A stretch of 63,112 nucleotides of DNA, taken from the NCBI GenBank assembly GCA_022616105.1, contig JAKEFL010000042.1, forward strand, positions 1-63,112, given 5' to 3'. The DNA comes from Anaerolineae bacterium. GTDB lineage: Bacteria > Chloroflexota > Anaerolineae > Anaerolineales > Villigracilaceae. Below the pieces are notes generated by a model. That model saw only the letters and a list, made by a program, of their open reading frames with translations, was not told the origin of the DNA and made no database searches. Each line of letters opens with the position of its first letter. Positions within the stretch are counted from its first letter, which is position 1. Below, in pieces: positions 4,299 through 63,112 of the stretch. The position numbers were made by a program, and so were the translations under genes.

Positions 4299-4877
4299 AT
4301 GAAATCTCAAGGAAACTCTTTCTCTATGAACACCAATCGCCTGCTTACAATTACGATCTCGATATTGATCCTCGGCGCAGTATGGACGTTTATGTCGCGA
4401 GTGCGCGAACCATCTTCCCAACAACCGGGGCCGCCTCCCAATCCGAAAGCCGGCTTCGCTGCCCCGGATTTCACGCTGGACACATTGGATGGCGGTCAGT
4501 TGACTCTCTCTGAACTGCGAGGACATCCGATAGTGCTGAATCTCTGGGCAAGTTGGTGTCTCCCTTGCAGAAGCGAAATGCCAGCAATTGAAAAGGCGTA
4601 TCAACATTATAAAGACGCGGGATTGATCGTGATCGGGCTGAACACGGCTTCACAGGACTCCGAATCGGATGCTAGGGCATTCGTGCAGGAACTTGGATTG
4701 ACGTTTCCCATCGCTCTTGACCGCGATGGTTCTGTACAGAGTCGCTATCAATTATTAGGATTGCCCTCCACTTATTTCATTGACCGAAAAGGAATTATCC
4801 GTGCGGTCGTTGTCGGAGGTCCCATGAGTGAGGCGACAATTCAATCCAACATCGAAAATTTGCTTCAGGAGAAATGA
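4299..4877 (+). CDS. TlpA/ResA-family thiol-disulfide oxidoreductase
   Basis: N-terminal TM, APDFTL, NLWASWCLPC, GLPSTYFID. Confidence 0.9.
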   Translation: MKSQGNSFSMNTNRLLTITISILILGAVWTFMSRVREPSSQQPGPPPNPKAGFAAPDFTLDTLDGGQLTLSELRGHPIVLNLWASWCLPCRSEMPAIEKAYQHYKDAGLIVIGLNTASQDSESDARAFVQELGLTFPIALDRDGSVQSRYQLLGLPSTYFIDRKGIIRAVVVGGPMSEATIQSNIENLLQEK

Positions 4878-5608
4878 TGTTTCCATTTTTGCGGATTGGT
4901 CCCCTTCTGATTCAAATGCATGGACTTGCACTGTTAACGGGACTATGGGTCGCAACGACCTGGATTGACAAAGAATCACTTCATTTGAAGTTGAACGCAA
5001 CAACGATTCTCAACATGATCTTTTACGGTCTGATTGGCGGTCTCATCGGAGCGAGAGTGATCTTTGCAGCTCAACACCTGAACATCTATTTCTTAAATCC
5101 CCTCAGTTTATTCTCCCTGAACACAGGTACGCTGGATCTTCCCGGAGGAGTAATCATCGGTGTGTTAATTGCACTTCTTATTGGTCGTCGTGAGAAATTG
5201 CCACTCCGCCCAACATTGGATGCTCTCGCACCAGGTTTTGCCGTGATGATGATTGCCATCGGCGTTGCAAATACCTTTAGTGGAAACGCGTTTGGTTCAG
5301 CGACTCGTTTGCCCTGGGCAATTTATCTCTGGGGCGAATTTCGCCATCCAACACAAATCTATGAAACCGTGGCGGCCATAATTGTTTTTATCGTTTGGAA
5401 GATCATACCAATTGAATCACAGCGATCGGGAATTCGCTTTTTGCAAGTGGTCGCCTTCTCGGCAAGCGCGCGCATTTTTTTGGAAGCATTTCATGGAGAT
5501 AGCGTTCTATGGCCAGGTGGTTTCCGCGCCGTGCAGATTATTGGTCTGCTTATTTTGACCGTTGCAATCTATTTAACAAAGCAATGGGGGAAAGCTGAGA
5601 GAGAGTAA
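4874..5608 (+). CDS. Prolipoprotein diacylglyceryl transferase (Lgt)-like membrane protein
   Basis: GLIGARV, LDALAP, G..T.LPWAI, RHPTQIYE motifs; overlaps upstream stop. Confidence 0.8.
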   Translation: MMFPFLRIGPLLIQMHGLALLTGLWVATTWIDKESLHLKLNATTILNMIFYGLIGGLIGARVIFAAQHLNIYFLNPLSLFSLNTGTLDLPGGVIIGVLIALLIGRREKLPLRPTLDALAPGFAVMMIAIGVANTFSGNAFGSATRLPWAIYLWGEFRHPTQIYETVAAIIVFIVWKIIPIESQRSGIRFLQVVAFSASARIFLEAFHGDSVLWPGGFRAVQIIGLLILTVAIYLTKQWGKAERE

Positions 5609-52780: not shown

Positions 52781-52799
52781 AAGAATAAGGACTACATTG

Positions 52800-53315
52800 A
52801 TGACTGAAACACTTTATTGTTATGTTCATCCAAACCGCGAAACATCCTTGCGATGCAATAACTGCAATCGTCCTATATGCGCGTCCTGTGCAGTGCGCAC
52901 ACCGACGGGTTATCGCTGCAGGGAATGTGTCCGTGAACGGCAAAAGACATTCGAAACATCAGAATGGTATGACTATGTTTTGGGCTTTATCGTCGCGGCG
53001 TTGCTTTCTGGCATTGCAGCCTTTCTGGTCACTTTGATCGGCGGGATCGGATTCTTTGGATGGTTCCTCATCGCCGCGGGCGCGCCGACTGCTGCTGTGG
53101 CAATTGCTGAAGGTGTGCGAGCAGTTACGAAACGCCGTCGTTCACGTCAATTATTTATCACTATCGCTGCAGGTGTTGTGCTTGGCGCGTTACCTGTTAT
53201 TCTATTCCAAGTCATCACGCAAAACTTTTTCGGCATCCTCTTTCAAGTGATCTATCTGATCATTGCCACTCCCATTGTTTACACCCGACTTTCTGGAATC
53301 CAATTGTTCAGATAA
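52800..53315 (+). CDS. B-box-like zinc finger membrane protein
   Basis: CYVHP.RET.LRCNNCNRPICASC...CREC plus four TM. Confidence 0.8.
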   Translation: MTETLYCYVHPNRETSLRCNNCNRPICASCAVRTPTGYRCRECVRERQKTFETSEWYDYVLGFIVAALLSGIAAFLVTLIGGIGFFGWFLIAAGAPTAAVAIAEGVRAVTKRRRSRQLFITIAAGVVLGALPVILFQVITQNFFGILFQVIYLIIATPIVYTRLSGIQLFR

Positions 53316-55817: not shown

Positions 55818-56537
55818 TTAGTTTCGGCTTGATTTCCCGTACGCTATTTTCAACGGCGGGAGTTTGTTGCCTTCGCCGCGCTTTGTTACTTCCACCCAAA
55901 GCGAAGCGGCAAGTTCATAGCCGATGATATGATCCTGCGGTTTCATTTGCAGGCGCAAGGGACCTTTAAAAGGCGCACAACTCAACAAGTGAAAAGGTGT
56001 TCCAGGCACGAGGCCAAGCTCACCAATATAGTGCAATTTTTCCATGTCATGCGTACGCACGCGGCTGACAATGCAATCGGAACCTGAAGGCACATCCAAA
56101 AGTGGAACATCATCCACTTTTGGCATCACGCCATCCCTGTTCGGAATTGGCTCTCCATGTGGGCAGCGCGTGGGATACCCAGCGAGTTCATCCATGCGGG
56201 CTTCGAGCTCATCGTTGACACCGCGCTCGAAAACGTCGGATAGTTCGTGCGCAGCTGCCCAGTCATATTTCATGACGCGCACGAGGAAAACCTCCGTGAG
56301 ACGATGACGGCGCAAGGAAGGCAAGGCGATCTTTTCGCCATCAGAGGTAAGACGAACGCCGCGGTACGGCTCATGCACTAAATATCCGTTTGTATTCAAG
56401 CGTTTCACCATCGTGGAAATGGCCTGTGCTGAGGCTTCCACGTGTGAACTTAAAAGGGAAAGGGACACCTGCTGGTGATCCTGTTGCAGCCGGTAGATCT
56501 CAGCAGCATAGCGTCGCATGGCGGGACTAATGGTCAT
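55818..56537 (-). CDS. DtxR/IdeR/MntR-family metal-dependent repressor with FeoA domain
   Basis: PYRGVRLT, RRHRLTEVFL, CPHGEPIP, GLVPG. Confidence 0.9.
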   Translation of the reverse strand: MTISPAMRRYAAEIYRLQQDHQQVSLSLLSSHVEASAQAISTMVKRLNTNGYLVHEPYRGVRLTSDGEKIALPSLRRHRLTEVFLVRVMKYDWAAAHELSDVFERGVNDELEARMDELAGYPTRCPHGEPIPNRDGVMPKVDDVPLLDVPSGSDCIVSRVRTHDMEKLHYIGELGLVPGTPFHLLSCAPFKGPLRLQMKPQDHIIGYELAASLWVEVTKRGEGNKLPPLKIAYGKSSRN

Positions 56538-56717
56538 AAATCTTGTTGAAACTCCAGAAAATTATCAACCAGGTTGAAAACTGGTTGCAATTGGATATAG
56601 GGTAAATTTAATACAAATATCTAGATTATTCCGATTGTGAAAATTATACTACGTGCCGCAATCAGCAGATAAATACTGTCTGATTTCTGAGAGTGTCTAA
56701 ATTCCAAGACATAACTC

Positions 56718-56843
56718 GTCACACTTGCACCTGCGTGTGATTTGCTTAGCAAATCATGCAGGTGTTGCGAGCCCGATAGGGCGAAGCAATCCCCTCACTG
56801 TGTTGGAGATTGCTTCGTCGGGCTACGCCCTCCTCGCAATGAC
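56718..56843. repeat. GTCATTGCGAG-family palindrome interrupted by a 43-bp CACTTGCACC module
   Basis: GTCA|CACTTGCACCTGC...GCAGGTG|TTGCGAG. Confidence 0.8.
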
Positions 56844-56863
56844 GGTCATTTTTGTTTTCGATG

Positions 56864-56877
56864 TTAGGCACGCCAAA
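56864..56877 (+). promoter_or_regulatory. Possible DtxR/MntR-type box
   Basis: TTAGGCACGCCAAA upstream of the iron ABC operon, divergent from a DtxR-family gene. Confidence 0.45.
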
Positions 56878-56907
56878 TATTCTAATCTCTCAAGGAGAAC
56901 CTTTATA

Positions 56908-57945
56908 GTGAGTAAGACAAAAATCTCTTTTATTATCATCCTGATGATGATCATGGTAAGCGCGTGCGGCGCGGCGCCAGCCGTTACTGAGGCACCTTTA
57001 GTTGAAGTTTCAGGTGACTTAGTCATTTATTCCGGGCGCACTGAGCCACTCCTCCAGCCGGTCATTGATGTGTTCAAGGCAAAATATCCCAACGTGGAAG
57101 TACTACTTAAGGCAGGGAGTAACAGCGAACTGGCGAACGCGTTGCTCGAAGAGCAAGCCAACCCACAGGCAGATGTGTTCATCACGACCGAGTTGTTCAC
57201 GGTGCAGTCGCTGGCGCAGGATGGCATTTTTCAATCGTATCCGCCCGTTGGCGCGGACCAACTGCCAGCTGAGTTTCTTGGCACGGATAACCTGTGGACC
57301 GGACTCACACGCCGGGCGCGCGTGATCATCTATAACGCCGACCTCGTTTCACAGGACGAACTGCCAACCTCTATTTTTGACCTGACTGATCAGAAGTGGA
57401 AGGGTCAGATCGCCGCCGCGGGTTCGACGAATGGCTCCATGCAGGCGCAGATCGCCGCCATGTGGCAATTGATCGGCGAGGCAGAGACCGAAGCCTGGTT
57501 GAATGGATTAATCGTCAATGACGTCACGTTCTTTGGCGGTCACACGGATGTTCGCAAGGCAGTGGGTTCCGGTGAATTCAAACTGGGTCTCGTCAATCAT
57601 TATTACTATTACCTGCAAAAAGCGGAAGGAAGCAATGTCGGCATCATTTTCCCAGACCAGGGTGAAGGGCAGATCGGGCTGATCACCAACGCCACTGCTG
57701 CGGCAGTGGTCAATGGCGCACCTCATCTCAGCGCGGCGCAAGCCTTCCTGGATTTCCTTGTCTCGCCAGAAGGACAGAAATTGTTCGCTGAACAGAATTA
57801 CGAATATCCGCTTCTGCCTGGTGTGGAAGTTCACGGAGATGTTCAGCGGCTGGAAGGTTTCCGTTTTGCGGACGTGGATGTCGTGGAAGCCGCACAGGAT
57901 TTCGAAGTGACATTTGACCTAATGGAAAAAGTTGCGTTGCCATAG
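56908..57945 (+). CDS. Fe3+ ABC transporter substrate-binding lipoprotein (FbpA/FutA-like)
   Basis: Lipobox VSAC, IYSGR, RARVIIYN, LVNHYYY, NYEYP. Confidence 0.9.
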   Translation: MSKTKISFIIILMMIMVSACGAAPAVTEAPLVEVSGDLVIYSGRTEPLLQPVIDVFKAKYPNVEVLLKAGSNSELANALLEEQANPQADVFITTELFTVQSLAQDGIFQSYPPVGADQLPAEFLGTDNLWTGLTRRARVIIYNADLVSQDELPTSIFDLTDQKWKGQIAAAGSTNGSMQAQIAAMWQLIGEAETEAWLNGLIVNDVTFFGGHTDVRKAVGSGEFKLGLVNHYYYYLQKAEGSNVGIIFPDQGEGQIGLITNATAAAVVNGAPHLSAAQAFLDFLVSPEGQKLFAEQNYEYPLLPGVEVHGDVQRLEGFRFADVDVVEAAQDFEVTFDLMEKVALP

Positions 57946-57986
57946 TACACACGTCACGCTCTAAGCGTGACCTACAATTCGTTGAA

Positions 57987-59627
57987 TTGGAAACAACACA
58001 CACCCATCGTCTCAACCTTCTTTGGTTGAAATCTAATCCCATCAGCCCGCGGCTTGCCATTGCCGCCGGGCTGGTGGCGCTTTTTGTTGCCGTCCCGCTC
58101 ATATACATTTTCATCCGTGCACTCGGAGCGGAGCCCGAAGCATGGCAACGACTGTTTCAAACCCGCATCTGGAAATTGCTGGGCAACACACTTGTTCTTG
58201 TCATTGCAGTGACGAGCGGTACACTACTGACAGGCGTGAGCATGGCATGGTTCACCGAGCGCACTGACATGCCAGGCAGAAAATTTTTCCGCTGGATGCT
58301 TGCCCTGCCGCTCGCCGTTCCCGCTTATATCGGTGGGATTGTTCATCTTGCGCTTCTGCGTCCACGCGGTGGATACATCCCACAGGTACTTGAAAGTATT
58401 TTTGGCCAGCCTGTGCCCACACCCAGCCCGATTGGATTTTGGGGCGCGGCTTTTATTCTCACATTGTTTACCTATCCTTATGTCTACCTGTTGAGTGCCG
58501 CTGCGTTCCGCTCTTTACATGCCTCACTCGAGGAAGCCGCCCGCACTTTTGGACGTTCTCCATTCCAGACTCTTTTCCAGGTGACTCTGCCCGCGTTACG
58601 TCCCGGGCTCGCAGCAGGCGCGTTACTGGTTGCTTTGGATATTTTGGCGGAGTATGGGACCGTGGCTTTGCTCCGTTATGAGACGTTTTCATCAGCGATC
58701 TTTGTCCAACTCTCGGGTCGCTATGACCGGTCAGCGGCTTCCATTCTGAGCGGCATTCTCGTTGCGTTGGCGATTCTCATCCTGTGGAGCGAACTGCGGC
58801 TACAGGGGCAGGCGCGCTATACACAAATGGAAAGCAACTGGCGTCCTGCGCCTCCCGTCATGTTGGGGAAATGGCATATACCTGCACTTTTGCTGGTAAC
58901 ATGTGTTGTTTCTGCCAGTCTGCTTCTTCCGGTGATCGTGCTCACAGTATGGAGCCTCCAAGCCTTCCTGGACCCAAAGACTCTGACAACTGTGTTTCAC
59001 ATAGGCTCGCAGGGCTTTGGCAGCTATGTGTGGAACAGTCTGTGGAGCTCAGGGCTCGCGGCATTAATGGCTGTCATCTTTTCCCTGCCTGTGGCATTAT
59101 TGTCTGTGCGCTATCCAAATTGGTTCACTCGATTCATTTCCCGCTTTTGTCAGGTGGGATATGCCATCCCGGGCGTCGTCATCGCGCTCAGCCTGGTGTT
59201 ACTTGTCAACCGCCTGCTTCCATTTCTTTACGCGACGCCGTTCGTCGTTGTCATTGCTTATGTACTGCGTCATATGCCGCAGGCTGTGCGTGCCAGCGAG
59301 TCGGCGTTAAATCAACTTTCGCCTTCCCTCGAGGAAGCCGCGCGCACACTGGGGCGCACATCGTTTCAAACGTTCGCTCAAGTGACTCTGCCGCTCATCC
59401 TGCCTGGATTAATGGCAGGTGGATCACTGGTCTTTCTTACATCGCTCAAGGAATTGCCAGCCACGTTATTGCTGCGTCCTGCGGGCTTTGACACGCTCGC
59501 GGTCCGTGTGTGGATGTGGGCGACGGAAGGCTTTTATTCGCAAGCCGCGCCTGTCGCGCTGTTACTTGTCCTTGCGTCGGCGTTCCCGTTATACTTCCTC
59601 CTGCGCAGAGAGCAGATCTTCAAATGA
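57987..59627 (+). CDS. Fe3+ ABC transporter permease (FbpB-like)
   Basis: Two EEAART motifs, YPYVYL, KELPATLLLRP. Confidence 0.9.
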   Translation: METTHTHRLNLLWLKSNPISPRLAIAAGLVALFVAVPLIYIFIRALGAEPEAWQRLFQTRIWKLLGNTLVLVIAVTSGTLLTGVSMAWFTERTDMPGRKFFRWMLALPLAVPAYIGGIVHLALLRPRGGYIPQVLESIFGQPVPTPSPIGFWGAAFILTLFTYPYVYLLSAAAFRSLHASLEEAARTFGRSPFQTLFQVTLPALRPGLAAGALLVALDILAEYGTVALLRYETFSSAIFVQLSGRYDRSAASILSGILVALAILILWSELRLQGQARYTQMESNWRPAPPVMLGKWHIPALLLVTCVVSASLLLPVIVLTVWSLQAFLDPKTLTTVFHIGSQGFGSYVWNSLWSSGLAALMAVIFSLPVALLSVRYPNWFTRFISRFCQVGYAIPGVVIALSLVLLVNRLLPFLYATPFVVVIAYVLRHMPQAVRASESALNQLSPSLEEAARTLGRTSFQTFAQVTLPLILPGLMAGGSLVFLTSLKELPATLLLRPAGFDTLAVRVWMWATEGFYSQAAPVALLLVLASAFPLYFLLRREQIFK

Positions 59628-60667
59628 CAGCATTGGAAGTACGAAATCTCGTCAAACATTTTCATGGCACCCAGCAATCGGCTGTCAATAATATTTCATT
59701 TGAGTTGAGCAACGGCGAAATCCTGGCGCTTGTGGGACCAAGTGGATGCGGAAAAACAACCACCCTGCGCATGATCGCTGGACTCGAACGTCCAGACTCT
59801 GGAATCGTCTGCTTGAACGATCGCGTGGTGGCATCTGAGTCGGTTTTTGTCCCACCCGAAAAACGCGGTGTCGGTATGGTCTTTCAGGATCATGCCTTAT
59901 TCCCGCACCTGACTGTTTCAGAGAATATCGCCTTTGGCTTGCGCGGACAATCTCCCGCGCAGATCAGGCAAACCGTTGGAGAAATGCTGCACCTCGTCGG
60001 GTTGCTTCCGCTGTCGAAACGGTATCCGCACGCGTTGTCCGGTGGGGAACGGCAGCGAGTCGCGTTGGCGCGCGCGCTGGCTCCACGTCCTGTGCTCGTG
60101 TTGATGGATGAACCGTTTAGCAGCCTCGATGCGGACCTGCGGATGGAAATGCGCGAGCATGTGCGCAGGATTTTGAAATCCATGCAGGCCACGGTGATAT
60201 TTGTCACGCATGATCAGGAGGAAGCGCTTTATATGGGGGATCGTCTCGCTGTCCTGCAAAATGGACACATCGAACAGATCGGCACGCCTGAGGAAATTTT
60301 CCACGAATCGAATACACGCTTTGTGTCTGAGTTTATGGGAGATAGTGACTTCCTCATGGGAAAAGTCACGAGTGGGGGAATTCTGACCGAAATTGGTTTA
60401 TTGAAACAAGTGGTTGACTTGCCTGTTTCCACACCTGTTGAGATCGCACTCCGCGCCGACGACATTGATTTCCTCGTGGATGGCAGCGGCAACAGCGTGA
60501 TCGTGGAGCGATTCTTCCGCGGGGCATTCAATATTTATCGTTTGCGTCTGGACTCTGGTCAAACCCTGCATGCATCCACAAGCCATACACAGATTCTGCC
60601 TGTGGGCATGCGCGTGCGCGCTTTCATTAGTGCTGAACATCCGCTGACGATCTTTTCAGAAGCTTAA
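59624..60667 (+). CDS. Fe3+ ABC transporter ATPase (FbpC-like)
   Basis: GPSGCGKTT, LSGGERQR, MDEPFS, VTHDQEEA. Confidence 0.92.
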   Translation: MTALEVRNLVKHFHGTQQSAVNNISFELSNGEILALVGPSGCGKTTTLRMIAGLERPDSGIVCLNDRVVASESVFVPPEKRGVGMVFQDHALFPHLTVSENIAFGLRGQSPAQIRQTVGEMLHLVGLLPLSKRYPHALSGGERQRVALARALAPRPVLVLMDEPFSSLDADLRMEMREHVRRILKSMQATVIFVTHDQEEALYMGDRLAVLQNGHIEQIGTPEEIFHESNTRFVSEFMGDSDFLMGKVTSGGILTEIGLLKQVVDLPVSTPVEIALRADDIDFLVDGSGNSVIVERFFRGAFNIYRLRLDSGQTLHASTSHTQILPVGMRVRAFISAEHPLTIFSEA

Positions 60668-60972: not shown

Positions 60973-62274
60973 ATGCGCCTCAAACGTTTTCAACTCGGAC
61001 TCATCCACGTCGCGGTCGCGATGACTCTTGTTCCTATCAACAGCACACTCAACCGTGTGATGATCAAGGAACTCTCCATCTCTGCGACCCTTGTTGCGAT
61101 TCTTGCCTCACTGCCATATCTCTTCGCCCCCATCCAGGTTGCGATTGGCTCCTATTCGGATCGTCATCCTATTTTTGGCTTTCGACGCACGCCATATATT
61201 CTCGCAGGTCTACTCCTGTGTGTGCTTGGAGTGGTTGTCTCACCACAGGTTGCGTTCCTGATTTCAGATAACTTTTCATTGGGTCTGCTTGTGGGTATCC
61301 TCGCGTTTGGCGCGTGGGGTATGGGATATAACCTCTCCGCAGTTTCCTATCTCTCTCTCGCATCCGAACTCTCAGGCGAAAATGGACGCGGCAAGACCAT
61401 CGCCACCATGTGGTTCATGATGATCGTTTCCATCATTGTGACTGCGATTGGGCTCAGCCGCATGGTGGACCCGTATACACCTGAAGCCTTAATTCGCGCA
61501 TTTGGAGTTGTAGCCGCCTCAGCCTTGACGTTAGGCCTGCTCGGCCTCATCAAATTGGAACCACACTCAAGCGTTTCTTCCTCAGCTGCATCTGAAGCCT
61601 ATACTGTTAAACAAATGACATCCGCGATTACTGCGAACCCTGTCGCGCGAGTGTTCTTTATTTATCTGCTTTTACTCCTGGCTGCCATTCTCGGTCAGGA
61701 TGTATTGCTTGAACCCTTCGGTGCAGAAGCCTTCGGCATGACTGTGACCCAAACCACGCGCATCACCTCCATTTGGGGAACGTTCGTTTTGATTGCGATC
61801 CTTATTGCAGGCTTTCTCGAAGGACGCGTCTCCAAGCGTCGCATTGCACAGTTTGGCAATACAGGTGCGTTGCTTGGTTTTATCGTGATCGTGATTAGTG
61901 GCATCATGATCAACACGAACGTTTTTTACACAGGTGTGACATTGCTTGGCTTGGGCACAGGGCTCTCCACTGTTGCAAATCTTTCCTTGATGTTTGATCT
62001 CACTGTCCCTGAACATGTTGGGCTTTATATCGGCGCATGGGGATTCTCCAACGCGCTCTCGCGGTTAACAGGATCGGTTCTCGGCGGCGTTTTGCGTGAT
62101 GTGGTCACGCAGGTCACAGGCATCGCGTTGAGCGGATATCTTGTCGTGTTCAGCATCGAAGCGTTGATGTTATTTGTTGCTACATATATGCTCTATCGCA
62201 TTGATATCAATGCATTCAAAAGAAAAGCCCACAAACCCGCCTTCGTCGATAAGGTTGCGCTCGCCGCGGAATAA
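60973..62274 (+). CDS. BCD/PucC-family MFS transporter
   Basis: TLNRVMIKEL, G..SD, RRTPYI, QDVLLEPFG, GLYIGAWG. Confidence 0.85.
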   Translation: MRLKRFQLGLIHVAVAMTLVPINSTLNRVMIKELSISATLVAILASLPYLFAPIQVAIGSYSDRHPIFGFRRTPYILAGLLLCVLGVVVSPQVAFLISDNFSLGLLVGILAFGAWGMGYNLSAVSYLSLASELSGENGRGKTIATMWFMMIVSIIVTAIGLSRMVDPYTPEALIRAFGVVAASALTLGLLGLIKLEPHSSVSSSAASEAYTVKQMTSAITANPVARVFFIYLLLLLAAILGQDVLLEPFGAEAFGMTVTQTTRITSIWGTFVLIAILIAGFLEGRVSKRRIAQFGNTGALLGFIVIVISGIMINTNVFYTGVTLLGLGTGLSTVANLSLMFDLTVPEHVGLYIGAWGFSNALSRLTGSVLGGVLRDVVTQVTGIALSGYLVVFSIEALMLFVATYMLYRIDINAFKRKAHKPAFVDKVALAAE

Positions 62275-62278
62275 AACA

Positions 62279-62713
62279 ATGCTGGCCAAAGAAGTAATTT
62301 ATTTTGCTGGATCAGATTTCAATCCTTCTTCACACGAAGATGAAGAGGGCGGTCAGGTCTGTATCCCCAATATCAGCCCGAAGGAGCGGAAGAAGCGTGT
62401 GCAGTTTGCCATCCGATATTTCCTCTTCACGCTTGTCGTGCTGGGCGCGCTCCTCGCTTTCGATGTGAATCCGCTGTGGCGTCTGCCGCTCTTTTTCATG
62501 TTCAGTGCGGCAACCACGAGTTACATTCAGGCGCTCGACAAGACCTGAGTGTCCCTTGCGTCGCGCGGTCTGCGCAACATCTCCGACAGAAACGAAAGAA
62601 TCAAAGACCCAGCCGAATTGAAGCAGGTTCGCCGTCAGGCGCGGCGGGTGATACTCAAAGGGTTTCTCGTTGCTCTTCCATTAACACTGGTCGCGTTTAT
62701 ACTCCCTCAATAA
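62279..62713 (+). CDS. Putative membrane selenoprotein (144 aa, UGA at codon 90)
   Basis: Frame continues past TGA 62546 for 54 codons to a TM tail; SECIS-like GCGC-GGTCT-GCGC hairpin just downstream. Confidence 0.65.
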
Positions 62714-62837
62714 GTGATCCTAAAAGCTTTAACATTCTTTAGGTATGTCACTCTGAGCGATAGCGAAGAGTCTCTGAAACAATCATAGAGATTCTTCGCT
62801 CCGCTCAGAATGACATTGCACAAGGTGAGACAAAATA

Positions 62838-63112
62838 ATGACAGATGAATGGCTTTCCTTGAAAGGCGCGGCGGAGTTGCTGGGTGTGCATCCAAGCACA
62901 GTCAGGTTGTGGTCGGATAAGGGAATCCTTCCAACGCATCGTACCTCAGGCGGGCATCGCCGTTATCGCCGTGATGATGTGCTATTATGGGCAAAGACCG
63001 CGCGTGAAGTGCGTGTTGAGCCTGAGGGGATCATGCGCCTGGCGATGAAAAATGTCCGCGTGCAGATCGGGGAAGCAAATCTCGAGTCTGAGAGTTGGTA
63101 TCAAAAGCTGAA
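62838..63112 (+). CDS. MerR/excisionase-type HTH protein (partial, runs off right edge)
   Basis: MTDEWLSLKGAAELLGVHPSTVRLWSDKG...TSGGHRRY. Confidence 0.8.
   Translation, partial: MTDEWLSLKGAAELLGVHPSTVRLWSDKGILPTHRTSGGHRRYRRDDVLLWAKTAREVRVEPEGIMRLAMKNVRVQIGEANLESESWYQKL

Follow-up and report, generated by a model that had tools for sequence, protein, structure and literature searches.

The gene at positions 62279 to 62713 (plus strand) of the window, the whole 63,112-nt stretch of DNA analysed here, very likely encodes a selenoprotein, a predicted three-helix membrane protein of 144 amino acids in which the TGA at 62546-62548 would be recoded as selenocysteine (Sec). This reading rests on two features: the TGA occupies a column that is Cys in relatives, and a conserved RNA hairpin lies behind it. 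The reading frame starts with ATG 62279 and ends with TAA 62711-62713; the TGA is codon 90, stands in frame, and translation across it gives QALDKT*VSLASRGLRN...AFILPQ*. The claim of the initial annotation that the frame continues past TGA 62546 to TAA 62711 was thus borne out on ORF reading. The gene is annotated as 'hypothetical', its database entries stop at 89 aa, and the hosts are sediment bacteria.

Homologs were reduced to representatives at 50% identity, which gave 461 clusters, truncated pieces included, and the best 150 of the 461 were aligned. Among these 150, 123 spanned column 90, 22 ended just before it, three were C-terminal pieces and two other fragments. Column 90 was Cys in 118 of the 123 full-length representatives; the others had three gaps, one Trp (P0131) and one Ser (P0232). 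Among the 120 closest proteins listed, 114 end exactly at residue 89, and the six longer ones carry Cys in four cases, Trp in one (P0037) and Arg in one (P0039). At the DNA level 100 loci, duplicates and the window included, comprised 64 with TGA, 29 with TGC and one with TGT. The rest consisted of L099, which is also Cys, one locus without a match and four that were unparsed, three of them with TGA. Counted as distinct loci there were 51 with TGA (window included) and 28 with a Cys codon (TGC/TGT); the latter exclude L099, and G394 (E 9.9e-4, two TGA, no selA) stands outside the counts. The Cys homologs are single ORFs. An in-frame UGA aligned to a conserved Cys, as expected of a selenoprotein gene, was thus found, with conservation of the frame counted over the 51 distinct TGA loci.

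All 51 of these loci stay open for 52 to 56 further codons past the TGA. In comparison with the window, 36 pairs gave a dN/dS of 0.108 for the upstream part and 37 pairs one of 0.110 for the part downstream of the hairpin, i.e. the frame beyond the TGA is under the same purifying selection as the frame before it. Positions 62200-62814 were identical in contigs of three runs, which belong to one study and possibly to the source sample. Because these contigs match and the same TGA is kept in independent loci from many genomes, the TGA is not a sequencing or assembly error. The codon following the TGA is GTG in 26/51 loci and GTA in 20/51. Thus there is no conserved restart, and a split gene starting again at GTG 62549 was ruled out. 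TGA ends 511 of 1,656 long ORFs in the source genome (G000), so it is a normal stop there and has not been reassigned, which rules out a code with TGA as Trp. Neither TAA nor TAG occurred at column 90 in the 95 loci parsed, and the true gene ends were TAA in 28, TGA in 15 and TAG in 8. Gene callers list pieces of 89 aa and of 49-54 aa.

The distribution of the gene is patchy; it was present in 36 of 401 genomes of the phylum and in 20 of 401 genomes of the class. Every TGA form with a readable origin came from Chloroflexota, one Cys form was labelled Zixibacteria, and the close relatives were labelled Anaerolineales or Chloroflexota. In a quick tree, built on few columns, Sec and Cys forms were mixed with at least five changes forced by the starred branches. 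P0037 (Trp) and P0039 (Arg) were entered as Cys there, which left the counts of Sec versus non-Sec unaffected, and the labelling pattern may have masked Cys28 rather than column 90 in some protein rows.

In bacteria SelB carrying Sec-tRNA binds the SECIS hairpin, and UGA is read as Sec. Behind the TGA a SECIS-like hairpin is found at 62563-62575 (plus strand; +18 to +30 with the T of TGA counted as 1), which has the loop GGTCT at 62567-62571 and a weak extension to 62558-62579. In GCGC-GGTCT-GCGC positions +18 to +21 pair with +27 to +30, and GGTCTGC takes bases 22-28. When the bases were counted in E. coli K-12 fdhF (sequence L148), the same seven were found at 22-28 after the Sec codon, exactly as the initial annotation had it. 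The candidate thus shares the in-frame UGA, GGUCUGC at +22 to +28 and G23/U24 in the apical loop with the SECIS of E. coli formate dehydrogenase H. Yet its stem has 4-5 bp and is devoid of the long lower stem and the bulged U of fdhF, and the FdhF protein itself is unrelated to the 144-aa protein.

The consensus bacterial SECIS described in PMC13188914 has a loop of 3-9 nt, a stem of 4-16 bp, a G at loop position 1-2, a distance of 16-37 nt from the UGA and an MFE of -7.5 or below. With a 5-nt loop GGUCU, 18 nt past the UGA, and a 4-bp stem the hairpin fits this model, and with -7.5 kcal/mol for +13 to +34 its energy is at the limit. The proposed fdhF-like SECIS thus agrees with the consensus model. 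A search of Rfam returned no SECIS family at E<=10 for the hairpin. Because the 60-nt stretch after the TGA folds no better than shuffles (z +0.89) and Rfam gave no match, the hairpin by itself is weak evidence for recoding. A strict motif, defined post hoc from this protein family, follows 15 of 165,654 TGA triplets in the source genome at the same offset, and the TGA studied here is the only one preceded by more than 32 open codons.

Among the TGA loci, which are kin so that counts are not independent and numbers are inflated, pairs 19-29 and 20-28 were held in 51/51, 18-30 in 50 and 21-27 in 45. C21-G27 was replaced by U-A in three loci, a compensatory change of both sides, and G23 was invariant (51/51). 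In contrast, just 12 of the 28 Cys loci held pair 19-29. Synonymous codons of the TGA loci were frozen at the hairpin with TCG for S95 in 33/33, CTG for L98 in 33/33 and CGC for R99 in 49/51, while TCG makes up 16% of the Ser codons genome-wide in the source genome. Elsewhere in these genes, at columns 66-71, the top codon shares for Leu and Arg were 0.30-0.40. Freezing is thus limited to the hairpin, and this within-gene comparison serves as a partial control for the kinship of the loci. Overall 96.8% of the hairpin cells were paired and the covariation score was reached by 0/500 shuffles; a register slid by 2 still paired 82.8% of the cells because the stem is self-complementary. From the aligned loci we take the hairpin to be under selection at the nucleotide level.

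Recoding of the fdhF type needs SelA, SelB, SelC and SelD. All of them are present here: the source genome, which is 88% complete, contains a tRNA-Sec (selC) above the cut-off, selA, selB and a selD that carries an in-frame TGA of its own. Two selA matches were seen (G000:C195 and G000:C60), one of them cut by a contig end. selB was detected in 18/18 other TGA-form genomes versus 6/10 Cys-form genomes, and selA in 12/12 TGA-form genomes tested versus a full-length selA in 7/22 Cys-form genomes. Hence the points by which the initial annotation had proposed to judge its candidate, the residue in homologs, the reliability of the reads and the Sec machinery, all came out in its favor.

Other genes of the source genome drew attention as well. 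A class I SAM methyltransferase gene (G000:C25, about 4618-5379, plus strand; L183:319-1080) has an in-frame TGA directly after a Cys codon, followed at about 18 nt by a hairpin with a GGU loop. It scored below all NCBIfam cut-offs, those of known selenoprotein methyltransferases included, and is a possible further selenoprotein. Likely selenoprotein genes, as far as their sequences tell, are those of a UxxC protein without an NCBIfam match (G000:C255; L184:1-567, minus strand), which may be DUF3179-like, and of a DsbA-like UxxC protein (G000:C316). A loose genome-wide SECIS scan yielded 181 candidates and was too noisy to count the selenoproteome.

AlphaFold2 modelling on 111 rows resulted in a pLDDT of 90.6 with helices at residues 34-60, 70-87 and 111-141, a short helix at 91-95 and a beta hairpin at 98-107; residues 21-30 had a pLDDT of 74. 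Helix 34-60 (62378-62458, plus strand) has a basic N-terminal part followed by the first predicted membrane segment. Helix 70-87 (62486-62539, plus strand) is the second, moderately hydrophobic one and ends just before codon 90. Helix 111-141 (62609-62701, plus strand) contains the third and would be made only on readthrough of the TGA. On average, Lys and Arg together number 4.3 ahead of helix 1 and 7.2 in the Sec loop, as against 1.5 in the short loop. These charges favor an N-in topology with the Sec loop inside, which we infer rather than assert because helix 2 is only moderately hydrophobic (window mean of 1.1 in the query and 1.5 in the family). In an alignment of full-length Cys rows, i.e. 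with fragments and non-Cys rows left out, Asn31 and residue 90 were invariant and Ile32, Arg40, Gln84 and Ala94 nearly so; no His was conserved in the family alignment. MI-APC contacts from the 111 rows were noisy and were used as a hint only.

Family searches with Pfam and NCBIfam gave no match over the cut-off for the query or its close homologs. When 111 members were scanned with the Pfam and NCBIfam 20.0 models, the best E-values among the first 25 families listed were 1.9e-4 (NCBIfam) and 2.6e-5 (Pfam), each from a single row and an unrelated family. The best PDB match by sequence had an E of 0.24, Foldseek had no match at E<=0.001, and VIA-align returned generic helical bundles with a best Z of 7.0. 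Absent fold matches do not demonstrate a new fold. The ESM Atlas, queried with the Cys homolog P0122, contained only 'hypothetical protein' clusters. Longer or fused forms were not seen among 7,996 candidates, which is weak evidence, and the length of P0277 (290 aa) seems to stem from a start called too far upstream. A thioredoxin fold with UxxC or CxxU was not found either; the model consists of three helices and a hairpin, and no Cys lies within 4 residues of codon 90.

Catalogued bacterial selenoproteins are mostly soluble thioredoxin-like enzymes, and membrane proteins are few among them. The predicted small membrane selenoproteins catalogued in PMC13188914 comprise the MerT-like mercuric transport protein (PF02411), YeeE/YedE (PF04143), SaoP (NF040733) and SO_0444 (NF033936). 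Like these, the protein studied here would be an integral membrane protein with Sec in place of a conserved Cys, and metal or sulfur ligands have been proposed for such residues (PMC13188914). On the other hand, it has no CxxU or UxxC, its partner Cys being 62 residues away, and the four profiles neither matched the query nor occurred in the list of 25 families obtained with the 111 members. The MerT profile (PF02411) found nothing in five genomes that carry the gene (G000, G019, G043, G067 and G121). When Pfam and NCBIfam profiles are used, the 119 families in Table 1 of PMC13188914 (2026) include no match, whether by profile or by motif. Further surveys of selenoproteins are PMC13326102 (BSepDB), PMC12013277 (deep-Sep) and the preprint of Haft and Gwadz (10.1101/2022.07.06.499078). 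Literature searches for 'selenoprotein' with 'DUF2892' and for selenocysteine with Anaerolineales and UGA returned no paper. The families of Haft and Tolstoy 2025 reportedly appear in the Table 1 mentioned above and are largely in NCBIfam, while Deng et al. 2026 are said to give unvalidated selenoprotein candidates from groundwater genomes, which could include this family. The view that the protein belongs to none of the classic selenoprotein families thus held in the Pfam, NCBIfam and catalogue comparisons, and we consider it likely that the family is undescribed as a selenoprotein. In all likelihood a known recoding mechanism is combined here with a new protein family, whose function is a predicted one.

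The initial annotation had suggested Cys28 as the partner of Sec90. Cys28 (TGT, 62360-62362, plus strand) precedes the invariant Asn31 by three residues. Of the 110 rows of Cys form, 78 had a Cys 1-3 residues before Asn31 and 15 had one at column 99, within the beta hairpin; none had both and 17 had neither. This either-or distribution had a Fisher p of 5e-10, calculated from rows that are not independent. A single Cys was seen in 7/110 Cys forms, and 181 of 203 proteins truncated at column 90 keep the Cys at -3. On the tree the Cys at column 99 required 13 changes versus 14.3 when shuffled, with the trait columns left in, and being scattered in this way it does not mark one clade. The either-or pattern suggests that the protein in most cases requires another thiol close to residue 90, which may be supplied by either of two neighboring elements. 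The pattern thus lends support to Cys28 as a putative partner thiol of Sec90. A resolving Cys of a redox cycle and a two-ligand metal site fit the pattern equally.

The mechanism we consider best is a redox pair of Sec90 and Cys28 at the cytoplasmic face, to which we assign about an even chance. The N-in three-helix topology would place Cys28, Sec90 and column 99 of this 144-residue inner-membrane selenoprotein on the cytoplasmic side. The selenolate of Sec90 might then attack a substrate at the membrane, be it oxidised sulfur or a peroxide, the second Cys would resolve the intermediate as a selenenylsulfide, and a cytoplasmic thiol system would reduce the latter. No reductase or substrate gene was found among the conserved neighbors at the loci examined.

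The genes around the window locus provide a modest clue to function. A gap of 4 nt separates the end of a PucC-family MFS transporter gene (60973-62274, plus strand) from the start codon. Downstream, the gene of a MerR/BldC-type HTH regulator (62838-63112, plus strand) is cut by the contig end. The region 55818-60667 upstream of pucC encodes, on the minus strand, a DtxR/MntR-type repressor and, on the plus strand, an ABC transporter that probably transports iron. Full-length relatives of the regulator have a C-terminal sensor domain that adopts a globin fold, with a Z of 13.2 against RsbR-type non-heme globins and of 9.9 against a heme globin-coupled sensor. Among the close clade's loci the order is PucC-family transporter, gene, HTH regulator, then DUF6391 and holA, preceded by hutX, an EfeO/FTR1-like pair or an ABC transporter with a DtxR-type repressor. 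Of the 44 distinct TGA loci whose upstream flank is 300 nt or longer, 28 have pucC and 25 have the HTH gene next to the gene. This context is restricted to close relatives: neither neighbor was present at the 15 most distant TGA loci (<=54% identity), and pucC was not beside the gene in the Cys-form loci examined. Moreover, none of 12 pucC loci fetched carries the gene, while nine have the HTH gene next to pucC and four have hutX. Because the same cluster occurs without the gene and adjacency is confined to close relatives, the gene has probably entered, in a single lineage, an iron/heme cluster that was already there.

These neighbors bear on a different function of the selenoprotein, in which Sec90 would join with the second Cys to bind a metal or heme iron, for iron or tetrapyrrole handling together with the PucC-family transporter and the globin-fold regulator. 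The positions of pucC and the HTH gene in loci near the window, the iron- and heme-related genes upstream and the globin fold of the regulator agree with this proposal. So does a remark in PMC13188914 that predicted transporters may use their Sec as a ligand of metal ions, and the either-or Cys suits a two-ligand site just as well. Yet the pucC cluster does without the gene, the distant TGA forms and the Cys forms do without pucC, His is conserved nowhere in the family, and the best globin matches of the regulator are non-heme types. We therefore regard a metal or heme-iron site as possible, albeit rather unlikely.

Several observations were made along the same stretch. The cluster of hutX, pucC, HTH/globin-fold regulator, DUF6391 and holA recurs in the Anaerolineales family (60973-63112; loci L186-L197), where 19 of 24 genomes have pucC. 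Neither photosynthetic reaction centre genes nor hutX were found in the 88% complete source genome. The recurring cluster suggests that PucC-family proteins may have a role in heme or porphyrin transport outside phototrophs. Between the gene and the HTH gene a near-perfect palindrome of about 75 nt (62744-62829, -44 kcal/mol) resembles a REP-like repeat with about 83 similar sites in the source genome; in the relatives listed the gap is mostly 1-14 nt, and three have a different palindromic insert. At 52797-53315 a B-box zinc-finger membrane protein is encoded between the NAD kinase and recN genes, an arrangement kept in relatives.

Another function that we weighed against the Sec90-Cys28 redox pair is that of a membrane sulfur relay derived from YgaP/DUF2892, in which residue 90 would carry a persulfide (sulfane sulfur) for transfer or export. 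YgaP-like_TM (DUF2892, PF11127) was the Pfam family with the largest number of matching members (14/111 at E<=0.1, best 0.0011). In both families a helical hairpin in the membrane starts with Asn..Arg..Arg and closes, on the same side, with a conserved Cys. The N-x-x-x-x-R..R motifs at the start can be aligned, and hhalign, when forced, placed the Cys of PF11127 on column 90; in E. coli YgaP C159 is at the end of the second helix (PMC4730233). However, every PF11127 match was below the curated cut-off of 25.3 bits, PF11127 found nothing in the source genome, and hhalign reached a probability of 54% over 23 columns (3.8% in global mode) against a 19-row alignment. About ten more residues separate Asn and Cys in the family studied here, which has a beta hairpin, a third helix and a second Cys in addition, the hairpin and third helix being absent from the YgaP domain. 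No YgaP structure was among the fold matches listed, no rhodanese fusion was found, and no rhodanese neighbor was seen at the loci examined. We thus treat the kinship to YgaP as a lead, not as membership, and consider such a relay unlikely.

The weakest alternative, that the TGA is a true stop of a truncated gene or of a split one with a second 54-aa gene from GTG 62549, or that it is read as Trp, could draw on the GTG directly after the TGA, the pieces given by gene callers and the few records with Trp at the column (P0037, P0131), yet is highly improbable given the variable codon after the TGA, the uninterrupted Cys homologs, the column free of TAA and TAG and the normal use of TGA as a stop, and it leaves the constraint on the hairpin and the link to selA and selB unexplained.

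Taken together, the data may describe an uncatalogued three-helix membrane selenoprotein family without a solved structural relative. Its partner Cys would have changed place repeatedly, from the N-terminal arm to the beta hairpin or back, and Sec and Cys would have been swapped several times within Chloroflexota. One Anaerolineales clade would have recruited the gene into a hutX/pucC/globin-sensor operon, where its product, a redox or metal switch based on selenium, would serve the traffic of heme or iron at the membrane. With all its parts combined this picture is speculative and rather unlikely. The selenoprotein reading implies that the gene has been systematically mis-annotated as an 89-aa fragment, as in 114 of the 120 closest records listed. 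It would extend a known recoding mechanism rather than reveal a new one, and the minimal 13-nt SECIS, apparently under clear selection at synonymous sites, is open to direct reporter testing. For the biology of the abundant uncultured Anaerolineae the finding would add a family to their selenoproteome, and it would show which residue is the functional one in a larger Cys family that lacks annotation and comprises the 461 clusters at 50% identity with truncated pieces included.
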